A DNA stretch of 64,000 nt from an uncultured Gammaproteobacteria bacterium (GTDB lineage Bacteria > Patescibacteriota > Patescibacteriia > Magasanikbacterales > GWA2-37-8), in the NCBI GenBank assembly GCA_964634875.1, contig CAZWKA010000003.1:16591-80590 (forward strand), read 5' to 3'. The position numbers and the translations under genes are program-made. Below are positions 2,615 to 46,447 of the stretch, piece after piece (positions within the stretch are counted from its first letter, which is position 1; each line of letters begins with the position of its first letter). The notes below the pieces were generated by a model. It searched no databases and was not told where the DNA came from. It worked only from the letters and a program-made list of their open reading frames with translations.

Positions 2615-5572
2615 ATGATCTTACATCAAAATAAAAAGGAGGGGTCATTTATTCGTTTTCACAAAAGACATTTTCTTGTTGCGTTTATAGTTATGGTAGT
2701 GAGCACAGTATTTGTTACTGGGCTCGTTTTATTTTTTGTTAATTTATATCCACCTGGTTTGTCGCGCGCGGCTACTGTCGTTTGGACAGGTGAGACAGGG
2801 GATGGTTTGTGGCAAACGGCAGGCAACTGGAGCGGATCAGCTGTCCCGACTGCTTCTGATGATGTGACTATAGCTTCAACCAGTACTTTAATTACGGTGA
2901 CACTTTCATCGGGGCAAACGGCTAATTTTAGCACCCTAACTATTGGCGGGGAAACGTTATTGACTAATTTTATCCTCGAAGGGAATATTGGAACCGGTGG
3001 AAGTATTACAATTGATAACTCTGGTGTATTGGAGCAAAAGAATGCTGTTACTCAAACAATTAGTGGTACGCTGACTATAAAGGGCGGGGCAACTGGCGGT
3101 AAGTTAACACATACAGGAAATGCTTCTTCACAGAGTTATATTTTGAATTTTGTAGCTCAAGCTATTGATGTGCAAGCGGGTGGAGTCATTGATATTACGG
3201 GAAAAGGTTATGGAGATGCCAATTCTGGCCCCGGTCCTGGTATCGGTCAATCCAATGAGGGTGTTATTGAGTCAGGTGGTGGGGCGCACGGCGGTAATGG
3301 TGGAACGTATAATTTTTCACAAGGCGGCATTGGTTATTGTTTGGTAACCGATATTACAACCATGGGTTCGCCAGGTGGGCAGGCTGGTGGAGAGACTTTT
3401 AACGACCCAAGGCATGGTGCGGGAGGTGGGCTTGCTCTGCTGCGCTCGATCGCGACTACAACATTAAATGGTTCAATTATTGCTTCAGGTGCCGCAGGTA
3501 CTACTCTTGCAGACAACACGTATAGCGGAGGTGGGGGTGGAGGTGGTTTGCGAATTACTGCTGGCGGTGCGATTGCAGGTACTCCAACCGCAGTAACAGC
3601 TAACGGGGGCGCTGGTTTTGGTGAAGGTTCGGCCGCTGGCGGAGGTGGTTGTATTCAGTTGTCCTACCATACAACAAACTCAATTACCGCTCTTGGAGAC
3701 ATGGTAACGGTTGATGGCGGTGCTCAGTTTGTAGGTGCAAATCCGACTGCTGGTTTATTTTACGCTGCCCAAACTAATGCAGTCCCAACTACTACTGTTA
3801 CCAGCGTTGTTCAATCAACGACTTCCACAGTTACTTTTGTCGCCAGTGTCACTGATGTTGATTTAGACGTAACAAGCCTTGTGGTAGAACATTCGCTCGA
3901 CGGCGCAAACTGGTCGTCTTCTACGCTGGGTAGTGTTACCCCAAGCCAGGGGTCGGTCAGCACTTCAACCGGCCGTATTTCTGGTATTGCCACCGACACT
4001 GCTACTACGACACTAACAGCAGTTTGGAATATCGGGATCGACGCGCCGACAACAACAACCTCGACTGCCTACATGCGTTTTGTTCCAACCGACGGCGCAC
4101 TTACCGGCGCTGTGGCCACTTCGACAGTTTTTTCTATTGTAACGGTTCCCCCGAGTGATTTAAATATTACGAGCGTGACAGACCATGAAGCGAATTTTAC
4201 CTGGTCAACCCAGGATGTTTTTACAAGTTATGCGCTGCAAGATGTTGCTAATGCCGTTTCATCCGGATGGGTTACCGGGGATAGTCATCAGATTACTGAT
4301 TTAACCTGTGGAGTTGCATATACTTTTGCTATTAAAGGTAAAAGCAGTGCGGATGTTGAAACTGGTCTTTCCGCTAGTATTGCGACCACAACACTTAATT
4401 GTGGTCCAGCCTTTTCGGCGAGCGGGGGTGGTGGGGGTGGTGGAGCAAGTGATTCAGGAAGCTCTGCTCCAGCGCCGAGCCCAAGCACAGACGCGCCACA
4501 GCAACTGGTAACTGTACCTTTATTTTTACAACCACCGGTAACTCCTGAAGTGCTATTAAATGTACCTCTTACGCCCGTGCCGCAGGACAGGCTTTTGCAA
4601 CCGCTTACGGTTTTGCCGCCACCAACGACACCGTTGGTTCCAGACACCGTAGTATTGCCGCCACCGTTGCCTCCTCAGGAAGTGCAGTTGATTTTAAACC
4701 AGCAAGAACAAATAGCGCAAATCATTACCCAATCCGCCCAGGTCATTGCTCCTGTACTACAAGTAACCACGCCGGTAACGGTCGGTGCAGCGACGCACAG
4801 TGTAACGGTTTCCGCTGCTTCCGCATCGAGTATTACATTTGTTCTTCGTTCTAATCCAATTACCCTTACTCTACAGGCCGGTGAGCAGCGTGAGGCTGAT
4901 ACAGACGGGGATAGTGTGACAGATGTCTTGGTGTCATATAAAGGCTTGTTGGAAGGAAAACCGCTTTTGGCTTTAGCGCCGCTGATTAATCAGGATGAAG
5001 CTGTGGGTCCGTTTACCATCAATACCGGTGCCCTGCAGACAAAATCAACCGATGTGTTGCTTACCTTTGGTGTGAAGGATATTCGTTCGATAGAAATTTC
5101 TAATACACCAGATTTTGTTTCGAGCGTGCACTTTGTTGCTGCTTCTTCAACGCGCTGGAGGCTTCCTACTGAGGCTGGTGTCGCTACGGTGTATGCCCGT
5201 ATTTATAAAAATAATGATACGGTCGTTGGGGTGAGTGATAGTATCTTTGTCCGACCAGAAGCTTTGCCTAATTGGTCGGCTGTGATCCCGAAACCCGTTG
5301 CAACCTCCACCGTACCGGTACAAAAAGCGAAGCCAGTACCTGTGGTGTTTAAAACTCCCCTGAGAGCTGGTAGTGTGGGGAATGAAGTTCGCATGCTTCA
5401 AGTAATTCTTAAAGCGCAGGGGTTATTTCCCGTGCAGCAAGCCGTAACCGGTTACTTTGGTCAGTTTACGTACCAAGGGGTTGTCGCTCTGCAAAAGAAA
5501 AATTCCCTTACCCCTATCGGTCAGGTTGGGCCGCAGACGAGGGCACTTCTGAATGTTTTATCTGCTGAGTAA
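2615..5572 (+). CDS. large cell-surface protein with N-terminal TM anchor, Gly-rich beta-helix-like repeats, FN3-like segments, Pro-rich linker and C-terminal peptidoglycan-binding domain
   Basis: 985 aa. N-terminal hydrophobic helix, GGxGGxG runs and a PxxP-rich region. The C-terminal GNEVRMLQVILKAQG...GYFGQFTYQGVVALQK fits the PG_binding_1 pattern. Confidence 0.6.
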   Translation: MILHQNKKEGSFIRFHKRHFLVAFIVMVVSTVFVTGLVLFFVNLYPPGLSRAATVVWTGETGDGLWQTAGNWSGSAVPTASDDVTIASTSTLITVTLSSGQTANFSTLTIGGETLLTNFILEGNIGTGGSITIDNSGVLEQKNAVTQTISGTLTIKGGATGGKLTHTGNASSQSYILNFVAQAIDVQAGGVIDITGKGYGDANSGPGPGIGQSNEGVIESGGGAHGGNGGTYNFSQGGIGYCLVTDITTMGSPGGQAGGETFNDPRHGAGGGLALLRSIATTTLNGSIIASGAAGTTLADNTYSGGGGGGGLRITAGGAIAGTPTAVTANGGAGFGEGSAAGGGGCIQLSYHTTNSITALGDMVTVDGGAQFVGANPTAGLFYAAQTNAVPTTTVTSVVQSTTSTVTFVASVTDVDLDVTSLVVEHSLDGANWSSSTLGSVTPSQGSVSTSTGRISGIATDTATTTLTAVWNIGIDAPTTTTSTAYMRFVPTDGALTGAVATSTVFSIVTVPPSDLNITSVTDHEANFTWSTQDVFTSYALQDVANAVSSGWVTGDSHQITDLTCGVAYTFAIKGKSSADVETGLSASIATTTLNCGPAFSASGGGGGGGASDSGSSAPAPSPSTDAPQQLVTVPLFLQPPVTPEVLLNVPLTPVPQDRLLQPLTVLPPPTTPLVPDTVVLPPPLPPQEVQLILNQQEQIAQIITQSAQVIAPVLQVTTPVTVGAATHSVTVSAASASSITFVLRSNPITLTLQAGEQREADTDGDSVTDVLVSYKGLLEGKPLLALAPLINQDEAVGPFTINTGALQTKSTDVLLTFGVKDIRSIEISNTPDFVSSVHFVAASSTRWRLPTEAGVATVYARIYKNNDTVVGVSDSIFVRPEALPNWSAVIPKPVATSTVPVQKAKPVPVVFKTPLRAGSVGNEVRMLQVILKAQGLFPVQQAVTGYFGQFTYQGVVALQKKNSLTPIGQVGPQTRALLNVLSAE

Positions 5573-5611: not shown

Positions 5612-5681
5612 GATGCTCCACTTCGTCCTATCGCTCATACGAACTAATTCGTAGGAATGATAGGGTGGGCGAAGTGGGGTG

Positions 5682-5714
5682 GGGGCTCCGCGCGTTTTTG
5701 GCGCGCGGAGCCCC
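5682..5714. repeat. perfect 13-bp GC-rich hairpin at the left edge of a high-GC islet
   Basis: GGGGCTCCGCGCG-tttttgg-CGCGCGGAGCCCC. It is preceded by a second long imperfect inverted repeat at 5617-5680. Confidence 0.7.
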
Positions 5715-5726
5715 TGGATTGGCTTT

Positions 5727-6380
5727 CTAGCGGCGCCAGAAAGCCAGAAACATGAGGGCGAAGGGTGCGGTGCAGACCGCGCCGAGGAACACGAACGCGA
5801 CGAACCGTGCTCTCGGCGAGATCCGGCTGACGCGCCGGATGGCCTGGGTGCGGCGCTCCTGCTCGGGGATCAGCGTATATGGCTGCGTGCCGTTGCTGAT
5901 GGGGTGCCGCTGCGTGCCCTGCTCTGTGATGGGGAACAGGCCGGTCTCAGCCCCACGCAGAACCGCGAGCTGCATGGTTCCCTCTCTGGACAGGTCGAGT
6001 GTCGGGATCTCTTTGGTGTCGTCCTCGTCGCCCATGCTCTGCACCTCTTTGGTGGCGGTGAGCTGGCGCTCGAACGCGGCCAGGCGCAGGTTCAGCAGGG
6101 TCTTGTCCGGATCCTCCTCCAGTTCGTCAAGGAGGGGGGTGAGAGCCTGAAGCGGGGTGACAGACGAGGCCGGCGGCGGCACCTCAAGCGGCCGAGCCAA
6201 CAGTGTCAGCGCGTAGGCCTCCTGGTGGAAGCCGCGCGGGTTCGTGGGCGTACGCTCATCCCCGAAGAGAGGGGGTGTGCGGCTCGAGGGCGGGCTGTCG
6301 GCAGAGCTCTGCGGCGGGCACGACGGGTCAATCAGGGGCTTGGCGAAAAGGGGCGGAGTCAGACTGCTGTGCGTCTTCAT
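5727..6380 (-). CDS. proline-rich protein with C-terminal transmembrane tail anchor, encoded in a high-GC islet
   Basis: ATG at 6380 has GAGGT 6 nt upstream. The C-terminal stretch FVAFVFLGAVCTAPFALMFLAFW is hydrophobic. GC is visibly far above the flanks, and the opposite strand also shows long ORFs, as expected for GC-rich DNA. Confidence 0.45.
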   Translation of the reverse strand: MKTHSSLTPPLFAKPLIDPSCPPQSSADSPPSSRTPPLFGDERTPTNPRGFHQEAYALTLLARPLEVPPPASSVTPLQALTPLLDELEEDPDKTLLNLRLAAFERQLTATKEVQSMGDEDDTKEIPTLDLSREGTMQLAVLRGAETGLFPITEQGTQRHPISNGTQPYTLIPEQERRTQAIRRVSRISPRARFVAFVFLGAVCTAPFALMFLAFWRR

Positions 6381-6420
6381 GACTGTTACCTCGCTGGGTG
6401 GCAAAAAAGGTCGGGCATTG

Positions 6421-6469
6421 TAGCGGTGAAACAGTCTGATTAATAGCTTTATTAGACTGTTTCACCGCT
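6421..6469. repeat. 17-18 bp inverted repeat (hairpin) at the right edge of the high-GC islet
   Basis: AGCGGTGAAACAGTCTGAT ... ATTAGACTGTTTCACCGCT with one mismatch. Confidence 0.7.
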
Positions 6470-6685
6470 AGAACACTTTTTTAAGGAACAAAAAAACCTG
6501 CGGCTTTCGCCTACAGGATGCTCCATCCTAGCACATTTTTAGGGTTTTGTCAAGGGTGTTTTGGGGTATTTTGGCTAATTTTAGCTATTTTTATAGTTTT
6601 AGAGTAGTTCAAATACCACTATTTACTGTTGCGGGCAAACATTTTTAAGCAGTATCTTTTCTTGAGGCAAGAAGTTATTAGTGGT

Positions 6686-7722: not shown

Positions 7723-8160
7723 ATGCTTAACCGCGATCTCATCAGCACCCTGACCCTCACTATCAACGCACCGGTCGCCAAAGTCTGGGACGGCCTTACG
7801 AACCCCGCGATGATCAAACAATGGCTCTTTGGCACCGATACCAAAACCACCTGGGAACCAGGCAGCGACCTTATTTTTAGCGGCGAATGGAGTGGGCAGG
7901 CCTACGAAGACAAAGGCAAAGTCGTCGTGTTCGAGCCGGAAAAAGTTTTGGAATATACCTATTGGAGCGCTTTTTCCAAATTACCGGACGCGCCGGAAAA
8001 TTATAGCCGCGTTAGGTTTGTTTTGTCTGATAAGGGTGATATCACCGAAATGGTGGTAACGCAGACCGGGTTTACGGGTGAAGAAGCGAAGCAGCATTCC
8101 ATGGATAATTGGAGGAGTACGCTGGGGAAGATGAAGGAGTTGGTGGAGGAAAATAATTAG
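7723..8160 (+). CDS. SRPBCC-family (AHSA1/polyketide cyclase-like) protein
   Basis: 145 aa. The VAKVWDGLTNPAMIKQW ... VVFEPEKVLEYTYWS pattern is typical of the SRPBCC/Activator-of-Hsp90-ATPase fold. Confidence 0.65.
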   Translation: MLNRDLISTLTLTINAPVAKVWDGLTNPAMIKQWLFGTDTKTTWEPGSDLIFSGEWSGQAYEDKGKVVVFEPEKVLEYTYWSAFSKLPDAPENYSRVRFVLSDKGDITEMVVTQTGFTGEEAKQHSMDNWRSTLGKMKELVEENN

Positions 8161-8171
8161 GTTTTTATTTT

Positions 8172-8753
8172 TTATCCCACTTGTCTTATCCAATCTCGGA
8201 TGATGCTTTGAATTCTCCCTATCTCTATTTCCGGCAATTCTCCGGTATGCATAATTATGTTTCTTGATAGTTCTAGGTCGTTAAAACGAGATGATATCCA
8301 GTGTTGATCGGGAAATAGATCGGAGAAATTCTCCCAATTAGCAACTATGATTTGAGCCAAGTTGCCAAACATTGTGTAACCTATTAACGAAGAGGATCGT
8401 GGAGTGTGGTATTTATTTTTCTCTTCTTTAGCCCTTAGATTTTCTGCTTGTTCCTGTACTTTCTTGGGAACATTGTCTTTCCACCATCCAATCCCAGCTC
8501 TCAATAAAAGTCGTTCTTCAATTAATTCTCGAACTGCGTTTTCCAAACAAAAGAACGATTGGTATGTCTTTGACATAAGACTAGCTCGATGTACTAAGAT
8601 TGGGCTGAAATCAGTTTCTTCCAAGACAGTGTCTTCCTCTTCTTTAACTATTCCCGAGTCAATCCCATCTCTCGTAAGTTTAATTAAGCTTTCGGTTGCA
8701 AGAATGCCATTAAAAACTAATTTTTTGAGCTGCTGTAAATTTGTTTTGTACAT
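8172..8753 (-). CDS. HEPN-domain protein (Rx4H motif), second gene of a two-gene cassette
   Basis: C-terminal LSRNIIMHTGEL matches Rx4-6H. Mostly helical composition. The local DNA is AT-rich, about 37% GC by eye. Confidence 0.55.
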   Translation of the reverse strand: MYKTNLQQLKKLVFNGILATESLIKLTRDGIDSGIVKEEEDTVLEETDFSPILVHRASLMSKTYQSFFCLENAVRELIEERLLLRAGIGWWKDNVPKKVQEQAENLRAKEEKNKYHTPRSSSLIGYTMFGNLAQIIVANWENFSDLFPDQHWISSRFNDLELSRNIIMHTGELPEIEIGRIQSIIRDWIRQVG

Positions 8754-8762
8754 AAGCCGGCC

Positions 8763-9389
8763 TTACTCAAATAAATTTTCTCTCAAGCTTTTAAAAATTG
8801 CACTATAGACACTTATATCAGTTGTTGCTGGCAAGTGTATTTCTATATTGTGATGGAAACTTAATGCTTTGGCTTCTTCCGGCGTTATCGGTTTTTGTGT
8901 TTTTTCATTTGTGCCACCACCTTTTTTTGTCTTCTCTTCTGTGGTTGGAGGAGGTGATATTTTAGGCGAAGCGCCAAATTTTGCTAGACCAACCAGTGCT
9001 TTATATGTCGCAAAGTATCTAGTGACCGTTTTCTCATCTTTGCCCGTAACTCGTGCCATTGCCCCTTTTATTGTATCTTCTGATTGCGTGTGCATCTCTG
9101 TATTGATTGCATAGATGTCTTTGTAGAGTTCAATTAATCTTTCCCCAATGACAAAAGGGTGGTCTTGTCGATCTTTCAGTCGGTCATAGTATTCTGTTGG
9201 AGCTCCGTCATCATTAAGTATATTAAGTCGTTTTAGAAGGGGGATTATTGCTCGGTCGTTAGAGCTTGCAAATCCCATTTGTTTAAGAAGTTCATTAGTA
9301 AATTTTTTTGGTTTTTCCGCAACTTTTATTTGTTCGAGAATAAAACTTATTTTATTGTTAGCGACCATGTAAGGGTATGTTTCTGGCAT
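8763..9389 (-). CDS. hypothetical protein, upstream partner of the HEPN gene (possible antitoxin/specificity partner)
   Basis: 208 aa. Stop lies 9 bp before the HEPN start on the same strand. No recognisable catalytic motif. Lys/Glu-rich middle region. Confidence 0.5.
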   Translation of the reverse strand: MPETYPYMVANNKISFILEQIKVAEKPKKFTNELLKQMGFASSNDRAIIPLLKRLNILNDDGAPTEYYDRLKDRQDHPFVIGERLIELYKDIYAINTEMHTQSEDTIKGAMARVTGKDEKTVTRYFATYKALVGLAKFGASPKISPPPTTEEKTKKGGGTNEKTQKPITPEEAKALSFHHNIEIHLPATTDISVYSAIFKSLRENLFE

Positions 9390-9473
9390 ATTTCGATTAT
9401 TTATTAATTAAAGACATTGTAATTGAAAGCATTGCAAAAAGCAAAGGTCATTATTGTTTATTGAGTGAAAGCA

Positions 9474-9500
9474 AAAAAAGCTCATTTTTTGAGCTTTCTT
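9474..9500. terminator. bidirectional terminator hairpin
   Basis: AAAGCTCA-tttttt-GAGCTTT flanked by A/T runs. Confidence 0.6.
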
Positions 9501-9515
9501 TCAATTCTTTATTTA

Positions 9516-10664
9516 TCATTTCCTCCTCGTAAACCACCAGCTCGCCAACAGCGTCGTTAACGGCACAGCCAGCACCAGCACGCAACTGCCCACCAGCGTA
9601 CGCACTAATTCTTCGGCAATAAAATTACTATTAAGCATGATCCACAACTGGGTGGATTTTTGCATGCTGTAGAGTAATAAGAGTGGGAACGACACGCCGA
9701 CGTAGGCGAGGACGAGCGTGTTCACGAGCGAGGCAATATGTTCGCGGCCAACCGAGAGGCCGCTTTTGTATAATTGAGCCAGGGAAACGGTGGGGTTGGC
9801 AGTATGGATTTCTTCGATTACAGCGGCTTGGGCTGTGGTGATGTCGTCAAGGACACCCAGGACGCCAATGAGAATGCCGCCGAGGAGTACGCCGCGCAGA
9901 TCTATCGTGCCGGCACCAAGTTGCAGGTAAAAGGCTTCTTCGGTACCGGTGCCTGCCAGTTTGGCAAAACGAACAAAGACAATGTCGATAATAATAGCGG
10001 CGCCAAGGGTGAGGAGGGTGCTGATAAGGGCGATGGTAGTGCGGCGATTAAAGCCGTGCGAGAGGTAGAGCGAACAAAAACAAATCAGGAGGGCGGCAAT
10101 GATGCAAGCGACCAACGGGTCGTGCCCGGCAGCGATGCGAGGGATTAGGAAGCGGAAAATGACCAGGGTTGTAAAGACTAGGCCGAGGATGGAGGTGAGA
10201 CCGCGCTTGCGGCCAAAGAATATGGCGAGCGCAAAAAAGACGGCGACAAGTATGAGGACGTTGGGCAGGCGGTACTTATCGGTAATGTAATAAAAGTCTT
10301 CTTTAATGCCGCCGGCGGGCTTGGTAATTATTACCACGTCACCCGCTTGTACTTTTTGGTATTCCTGGATGGCAAAGAGGCCACCGTGGTCGATAGTAAT
10401 TTTTTTACCTTTTTCATCGCCGCTCACAATCTCAAGTTCCAGTTTTTGGTATTCCTGCGGCGTACCATCCGCGTCTTTGGTGCCGCTCTCCACGACCTGC
10501 AGAACTTTGGCGCGGGCAAAGATGTCCGGTGCATCATTTACAATGGGCGCGTCTAAGTCGAGCGGCGCTTCTTCGAGTGTCTGCATCTGTGCCCGGTGGG
10601 GGAAAAATGCGGACAAAAAGAGAATGATACAAAAGAGGCTGCGGGTAAAGAAAGTGTGGTGCAT
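9516..10664 (-). CDS. YibE/F-family integral membrane protein
   Basis: 382 aa. N-terminal extracytoplasmic domain followed by about 8 TM helices, the typical YibE/F layout. Confidence 0.7.
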   Translation of the reverse strand: MHHTFFTRSLFCIILFLSAFFPHRAQMQTLEEAPLDLDAPIVNDAPDIFARAKVLQVVESGTKDADGTPQEYQKLELEIVSGDEKGKKITIDHGGLFAIQEYQKVQAGDVVIITKPAGGIKEDFYYITDKYRLPNVLILVAVFFALAIFFGRKRGLTSILGLVFTTLVIFRFLIPRIAAGHDPLVACIIAALLICFCSLYLSHGFNRRTTIALISTLLTLGAAIIIDIVFVRFAKLAGTGTEEAFYLQLGAGTIDLRGVLLGGILIGVLGVLDDITTAQAAVIEEIHTANPTVSLAQLYKSGLSVGREHIASLVNTLVLAYVGVSFPLLLLYSMQKSTQLWIMLNSNFIAEELVRTLVGSCVLVLAVPLTTLLASWWFTRRK

Positions 10665-16546: not shown

Positions 16547-16617
16547 GGGCGCGTCGTATAATGGTAGTACGTTGGTCTCCAAAACCAACTGCGTAGGTCC
16601 GATTCCTACCGCGCCTG
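16547..16617 (+). tRNA. tRNA-Trp (anticodon CCA)
   Basis: Anticodon stem TTGGT/ACCAA with loop CTCCAAA. D-arm GTAT..GTAC. T-arm GTAGG-TCCGATT-CCTAC. Resembles E. coli tRNA-Trp. Confidence 0.7.
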
Positions 16618-46376: not shown

Positions 46377-46447
46377 TTCGGGGACCAGGATTCGAACCTA
46401 GATACACAGCTTCAGAGGCTGTAGTCCTACCATTAGACGATCCCCGA
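46377..46447 (-). tRNA. tRNA-Gln (anticodon CTG)
   Basis: On the minus strand. Acceptor TCGGGGA/TCCCCGA, D-stem GTCT/GGAC, anticodon stem ACAGC/GCTGT with loop CTCTGAA, T-arm GGTTCGAATCC. Confidence 0.7.

Follow-up and report, generated by a model that had tools for sequence, protein, structure and literature searches.

The 64,000-nucleotide window analysed here (positions 16,591 to 80,590 of contig CAZWKA010000003.1, assembly GCA_964634875.1, from an uncultured bacterium that GTDB places in the Patescibacteriota) carries a compact cassette on its minus strand, in which a gene for a 208-residue partner protein (gene A) is followed by a gene for a 193-residue HEPN protein (gene B). Adjacent and co-directional, the two genes match both models of the PADLOC system PDC-M34 over their full length (E values of about 1e-65) and in its order, A>>B, and by the standards of both PADLOC and Pfam it belongs to PDC-M34 and to the Swt1-like HEPN family. 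An earlier note on this DNA, made from the letters of the window, had described two tightly linked minus-strand genes with a 9-bp gap, and the same two appear in the six-frame list of open reading frames (ORFs). It had also called them AT-richer than their surroundings, as the GC content bears out: 37.8% in the cassette, 50.6% over the 5 kb on either side and 46.7% across the window, with the bin that holds most of the cassette being the sole 1-kb bin below 40% GC. The backbone genes between which the note had placed the pair are indeed convergent, an AHSA1/SRPBCC gene on the plus strand and a YibE/F membrane-protein gene on the minus strand, and only 11 nt separate the stop codons of the HEPN and AHSA1 genes.

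The identity of gene B is established by profile, conservation and fold evidence that all point the same way. Its motif LSRNIIMH, which the earlier note had read as a HEPN signature to be checked by a Pfam search for a match in the HEPN clan, occupies residues 162-169 and ends 24 residues short of the C-terminus, with R164 encoded by nt 8262-8264 and H169 by nt 8247-8249. The Pfam family HEPN_Swt1 (PF18731) matches the protein with an E value of 3.3e-11 and 43.9 bits against a cut-off of 27.5, covering positions 1-115 of the 115-position profile, and the PADLOC model PDC-M34B (PDLC04592) matches full length with an E value of 1.1e-65. R164, N165 and H169 are invariant in all 25 homologues aligned (57-74% identity), as are E71 and R75 in the helix that carries the sequence CLENAVRE, and among 107 sequences the catalytic block at residues 161-170 has a top-residue frequency of 0.90. 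An AlphaFold2 (AF2) model of the protein, with a predicted local distance difference test (pLDDT) score of 85, is all-helical and has the helical-bundle fold of HEPN domains; it comprises an N-terminal helix (residues 2-28), a connector of lower confidence (about 29-50) and a core (51-192). Csm6 and the sacsin HEPN domain are listed in the fold comparison of this model, and a Foldseek search of it against the PDB returned no significant match. At the level of sequence, no solved structure was detectable for either protein of the cassette, and neither has a match in NCBIfam or PHROGs. The combined evidence rules out a chance occurrence of the motif. Gene B is a genuine member of the Abi2/Swt1 clade of HEPN proteins and is probably catalytically competent, with ribonuclease (RNase) activity expected by analogy with its family.

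The partner belongs to a family of its own. Pfam DUF5343 matches residues 6-140 of the gene A protein with an E value of 6.2e-38, and PADLOC PDC-M34A (PDLC04589), a profile of 208 positions, matches residues 1-206 with an E value of 3.4e-65; homologues fall into 442 clusters. Alignments of 26 homologues and of 107 full pairs divide the protein into three parts. The first is a conserved winged-helix and helical N-domain, whose model has winged helix-turn-helix (wHTH) proteins as its fold neighbours and places the invariant residues N44, D45 and R46 within the third helix of the winged helix. It is followed by a linker whose length and sequence both vary, with top-residue frequencies of 0.15-0.21 among the 107 sequences and pLDDT below 50 at residues 146-180. 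The chain then ends in a tail of quite another character: residues 181-200 reach top-residue frequencies of 0.93-0.96 in the same sequences, the highest of any block in either protein, second to which comes the catalytic block of the HEPN domain. The consensus of the tail over residues ~177-208 of the homologues is FHYNIQIHLPATTDISVYNAIFKSLKENL, and the model places a helix at residues 192-206. This plan of a wHTH N-domain, a disordered linker and a conserved tail is, as modelled, the layout of a type II antitoxin, and we propose that the tail is the element that would bind and neutralise the HEPN protein.

The two genes nearly always travel together: with few exceptions they are neighbours across the 134 related loci examined, which span more than 12 phyla. 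A scan seeded with the HEPN protein and restricted to one genome per species gave 54 loci, also in more than 12 phyla, and tblastn placed a co-directional DUF5343 gene immediately upstream of the HEPN gene in about 49 of them, the exceptions being visibly degraded or split copies. Seeded with the partner instead, metagenome searches found the HEPN gene directly downstream in 78 of 80 loci; one of the two exceptions leaves no room for it and the other is a degraded copy of low coverage. When 941 flanking ORFs of the 54 loci were clustered, the A and B families were the only ones to recur and no third family emerged. The genes are tightly coupled, with the putative antitoxin first: the intergenic distance in 106 complete pairs ranges from -8 to +18 nt with a median of 1, 31 pairs overlap, and the cassette of the window, with its 9 nt, falls within this range. 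The matrices of pairwise identity for A and B correlate with r = 0.76 (Mantel test, 0/999). These observations show that the pair is an obligately co-inherited, translationally coupled unit.

PDC-M34 comes from a computational survey by Payne et al. (bioRxiv 10.1101/2024.01.29.577857), in which PDC systems are "phage defence candidates" nominated by guilt-by-embedding: a cassette was selected if at least one instance was embedded in BREX, DISARM or type I restriction-modification (R-M). The authors list 145 PDCs and state that all await test, and their supplementary table gives PDC-M34 as cassette CAS_00130, with two families in the order A>>B and a count of 97. The cassette of the window shows no architectural difference from PDC-M34 of PADLOC-DB v2, which is itself a computational candidate. 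Because both proteins match PDC-M34 full length, the pair is catalogued rather than new. The earlier note had suggested that it may be a novel HEPN-based pair; this has to be given up, since the PADLOC query that it suggested returned PDC-M34 models for both genes and the Pfam families DUF5343 and HEPN_Swt1 already exist. The other points of the note hold up: the HEPN assignment, the tight two-gene operon, and the view of the pair as a toxin-antitoxin or abortive-infection module, for which "candidate" is still the right word. The 2013 survey of HEPN proteins covers the Abi2/Swt1 clade and does not cover the DUF5343-HEPN pair (Anantharaman et al. 2013, PMC3710099).

Homologues at 57-74% identity occur in bacteria of the candidate phyla radiation (CPR), Nitrospira, Pirellulales, Clostridia, Bacteroidota and one metagenome-assembled genome (MAG) of a Thorarchaeota archaeon, and each protein forms hundreds of clusters at 90% identity. 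The closest in the 54-locus scan are those of CPR/Patescibacteria, at 59-67% identity. In 47 of 49 loci the GC content of the pair is below that of its flanks, with a mean difference of 9.3 points, and several loci carry marks of mobility. In Nitrospira it sits in a small mobile element with an excisionase-like helix-turn-helix gene, a Rep gene and a PIN toxin-antitoxin pair. On the Alkalispirochaeta chromosome OZ271836.1 (7383-16883) it lies between two inverted copies of IS21, in a patch that also holds a DUF4062 protein, an IS110 transposase and a patatin-like phospholipase and that could be a composite-transposon-like defence cargo. Two further loci have an insertion sequence (IS) or a resolvase close by. 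These mobility signatures identify the cassette as a horizontally acquired, mobile two-gene operon. The Pirellulales MAG contig JBBDYG010000102.1 (2356-12586) provides the one clear case of a defence island, with HsdM-HsdS-HsdR of a type I R-M system, the DUF5343-HEPN pair, an FRG protein and a GmrSD-like (DUF262) protein all on one strand; it is 1 of about 12 annotated homologous loci, the others having housekeeping or mobile-element contexts. Taken together, these contexts are what one would expect of a small cassette, selfish or defensive, with hardly any preference for its insertion site. An origin of the cassette in phages or plasmids was considered and rejected. There is no PHROG match, neither 50,697 phage records nor IMG/VR contains the pair, and 72,556 plasmids yielded one distant match without its partner. 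This match, on the Sphaerospermopsis plasmid AP018315.1 (5716-6465), is a PDC-M34B-like HEPN protein (E value 2.6e-41, motif RHIIAH) that has its own N-terminal extension of 100 residues and no DUF5343 partner, its upstream gene encoding an unrelated lipoprotein-like protein.

Many immune systems, among them Cas13, Csm6, Abi systems and HEPN-MNT, rely on HEPN RNases for killing or arrest, and the cassette can be set beside several of these. It would work in the manner of a HEPN toxin-antitoxin or Abi module. It shares the Abi2/Swt1 clade with AbiD and AbiF (PMC3710099), but gene B falls far short of AbiF in length and lacks an Abi_2 match in Pfam, so that fold similarity alone remains. AbiF also works with a non-coding RNA (ncRNA), whereas here the dedicated partner is a protein. 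The possibility of an ncRNA partner, AbiF-like or of type III, was rejected: about 50 genome loci show no conserved non-coding DNA upstream or downstream of the pair, and Rfam gave no match. Because it has neither an Abi_2 match nor a conserved RNA, the cassette is not an AbiF system with its ncRNA. Nor is it a HEPN-MNT pair (HepT-MntA, type VII toxin-antitoxin), because the nucleotidyltransferase is missing; the partner is a wHTH-linker-tail protein whose only Pfam match is DUF5343 and whose fold neighbours are wHTH proteins, which disposes of an MNT-type identity for gene A. Neutralisation by AMPylation is therefore not expected. BrxA (DUF1819) of BREX was likewise rejected as a relative of gene A: the resemblance is one of fold only (hhalign probability 0.5%), BrxA lacks the tail and linker of gene A, and the window offers no BREX context. 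Without a sequence relationship to BrxA, the cassette is not a BREX component. Classical type II toxin-antitoxin pairs offer a further parallel: the cassette family resembles them in the order of its genes, with the putative antitoxin first, and in its overlap or coupling, in the predicted combination of an N-terminal DNA-binding fold with a disordered region and, at the end of this, a short conserved element, and in the partner swapping seen across the wider DUF5343 family.

An intact HEPN motif and an obligate, coupled partner with a wHTH fold, a linker and an invariant tail are best accommodated by a toxin and its neutraliser. We therefore lean, with moderate confidence, toward a module built like a type II toxin-antitoxin system, in which the tail of the partner would silence a HEPN RNase. 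Under this model gene B would be an endoribonuclease of the Swt1/Abi2 HEPN clade, with R-N-x3-H as its active site, probably dimeric as other HEPN toxins are, and translational coupling would have A and B produced together. The tail of A would bind the HEPN dimer and hold the RNase silent. Were A lost or diverted, B would be free to cut cellular RNA, phage RNA or both, and growth would arrest. Removal of A could result from protease attack on the linker, from a shut-off of host expression or from engagement of the wHTH domain with phage nucleic acid or protein, and the outcome could be abortive infection, addiction to the cassette or both. Within this mechanism, we regard an anti-phage and a purely selfish role as roughly even.

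A number of observations weigh against the toxin-neutraliser module with a defensive role. At 208 residues, with a large helical N-domain, the partner is above the size of classical type II antitoxins, and it also departs from them in having no operator that could be found. Across 103 upstream regions there is no conserved operator sequence and a weak enrichment of palindromes: inverted repeats exceed the 95th percentile of shuffled sequences at 13 loci where about 5 are expected, and some of these are terminators. The window contains no defence neighbours, the surroundings being housekeeping genes; the same is true of most inspected neighbourhoods, among them those of Saccharibacteria and several other genomes by Pfam annotation, and PADLOC and Pfam searches of 148 flanking ORFs found few and scattered defence matches. 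Neither "PDC-M34" nor "DUF5343" gave a paper in full-text literature searches, and the later studies consulted that test or analyse PDCs deal with other PDC numbers, M34 not being among them.

One alternative is a pure selfish addiction module without a dedicated anti-phage role. Here A would be an antitoxin that is labile, binds DNA and represses its own operon, and the RNase toxin B would serve to stabilise the cassette, or the island in which the cassette lies. This alternative overlaps mechanistically with the toxin-neutraliser model and differs from it in biological role only. Solo insertion among housekeeping genes at most inspected loci is what such a module would show, as are the low GC content and patchy distribution, the antitoxin-first order with its overlap or coupling, and the combination of DNA-binding domain, disordered region and short binding element. 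It is less easily reconciled with the lack of clear operator palindromes or with the near absence of the family from plasmids, where the distant, partner-less match on AP018315.1 is the only one; the cassette is therefore not a plasmid-addiction system. The discovery of the family within BREX, DISARM or type I R-M, and the one locus in an R-M/GmrSD island, also count against a purely selfish role, which we consider fairly unlikely.

The roles of the two proteins could also be arranged differently. If A were a sensor or activator, its BrxA-like winged helix would recognise phage DNA or RNA and would then recruit, or allosterically switch on, a HEPN RNase that is inactive by default, after the fashion of sensor-effector defence systems; this we judge improbable. 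Lower still, and very improbable in our estimate, stands a housekeeping pair with no part in conflict, composed of a transcriptional or RNA-binding regulator and an RNA-processing HEPN enzyme. Some HEPN proteins do have housekeeping functions, such as Las1 and eukaryotic Swt1 (PMC3710099), and the context in the window is a housekeeping one. A housekeeping role sits badly, however, with a patchy occurrence across phyla and domains at 57-74% identity, with a GC content consistently below that of the host, with the lack of a conserved genomic neighbourhood, and with the existence of degraded copies and of loci that adjoin IS elements or recombinases.

The toxin-neutraliser model acquires a wider setting from the DUF5343 family itself. 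A search with the N-domain against 1.84 billion representatives returned 1012 representative clusters at E <= 1e-3 and 290 at E <= 1e-10; at 50% identity, this domain of the partner finds about 1000 clusters. Relatives at 28-40% identity keep the same plan, a full-length PDC-M34A match and a recognisable tail, with the remote pattern h-x-h-x-h-x-L-P-x-T-x-D-x-x-h-Y-x-x-h-F-x-S-h-x-x-x-L. The genes downstream of remote relatives were inspected in a sample of four, of which three (L147, L151 and L153) are at 28-34% identity. One (L147, 852-2058) overlaps a gene for a 179-residue AF_1680 protein, so named in precomputed Pfam annotation, which has the motifs CLEN and RRNECAH (RNx3H) and no PDC-M34B match. 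A second (L151, 355-1707) precedes a frameshifted DUF3800 gene. The third (L153, 3338-4453) has its tail replaced and is fused to a C-terminal domain of about 230 residues without known identity, and the fourth has a transposase next downstream. This suggests that DUF5343 is a portable regulator serving several effectors; because the sample is one of four, this reading is a lead only. Partner swapping of this sort is typical of toxin-antitoxin and defence modules. A bolder version, possible in our view though doubtful, would make DUF5343 proteins an unrecognised class of portable regulators, antitoxins or sensors, in which a tail on a disordered tether from a BrxA-like winged helix holds a Swt1-type HEPN protein, an AF_1680-type HEPN-like protein or a DUF3800 protein and releases it when the winged helix meets phage nucleic acid. 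If so, PDC-M34 would found a new family of tethered-inhibitor abortive-infection systems across bacteria and archaea.

For the cassette of the window, the analysis describes an ordinary acquired member of PDC-M34 and not a new kind of system. The family is a widespread one, with members in numerous phyla of bacteria and in at least one archaeal MAG, for which no mechanism had been proposed before. What was a catalogue entry becomes a testable model of an obligate unit with a tripartite, antitoxin-like partner and an invariant tail of 30 residues.

The features of the locus are collected in Table 1. The hairpin with its T-run likely acts as a transcriptional insulator of the cassette, and together with the sigma-70-like match ahead of gene A it makes the cassette look transcriptionally autonomous, consensus matches of this kind being weak evidence: the number of sigma-70-like matches in the region equals that expected from shuffled sequence. 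Around the cassette, a search for target-site duplications and terminal repeats met with short repeats of the chance type only, and an Rfam search of 7900-9700 gave no match.

Table 1. Features of the PDC-M34 cassette and its immediate neighbours, in window coordinates.
Feature	Position	Strand	Basis or remark
Gene A, DUF5343 / PDC-M34A partner protein, 208 aa	8763..9389	-	six-frame ORF list; starts ATG
Gene A residues 1-140, winged-helix and helical N-domain, predicted nucleic-acid binder	8970..9389	-	
Gene A residues 141-176, charged, disordered, hypervariable linker	8862..8969	-	pLDDT and alignment
Gene A residues 177-208, near-invariant C-terminal tail SFHHNIEIHLPATTDISVYSAIFKSLRENLFE, extended segment then amphipathic helix	8766..8861	-	alignment and model
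Spacer between gene A and gene B (operon junction), 9 nt	8754..8762	-	
Gene B, Swt1/Abi2-clade HEPN protein / PDC-M34B, 193 aa, predicted RNase effector	8172..8753	-	six-frame ORF list; starts ATG
Codons R164-N-I-I-M-H169, Rx4H HEPN catalytic motif	8247..8264	-	R, N and H invariant in homologue alignment
Left neighbour, AHSA1/SRPBCC gene	7723-8160	+	
Right neighbour, YibE/F membrane-protein gene	9516-10664	-	
Sigma-70-like promoter match, ATTACA-16-AATAAT, directly 5' of gene A	9396..9423	-	consensus match only
Hairpin (inverted repeat I15) and T-run, just past the YibE/F stop	9473..9501	-	

Elsewhere in the window, a 67% GC island at 5650-6400 stands out from the ~47% GC of the window. It holds a minus-strand ORF (5727..6404) of up to 225 aa that is rich in Pro and Ser and has a hydrophobic C-terminal helix, and it is bracketed by strong hairpins at 5683-5715 and 6419-6470; Rfam gave no family at gathering score, and the island looks like a separately acquired foreign gene. 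On the far side of YibE/F, the segment 10700-12350 has a strongly positive GC skew and minus-strand ORFs of 133, 203 and 236 aa, of which the first and last have no Pfam match; long ORFs overlap on both strands there, which leaves the coding frame ambiguous. A cluster of three tRNA genes (2201-2485) lies just upstream of a gene for a secreted protein of 985 aa with a peptidoglycan-binding domain (2615-5572), and more tRNA genes are found at 16547-16617 and 46377-46447.
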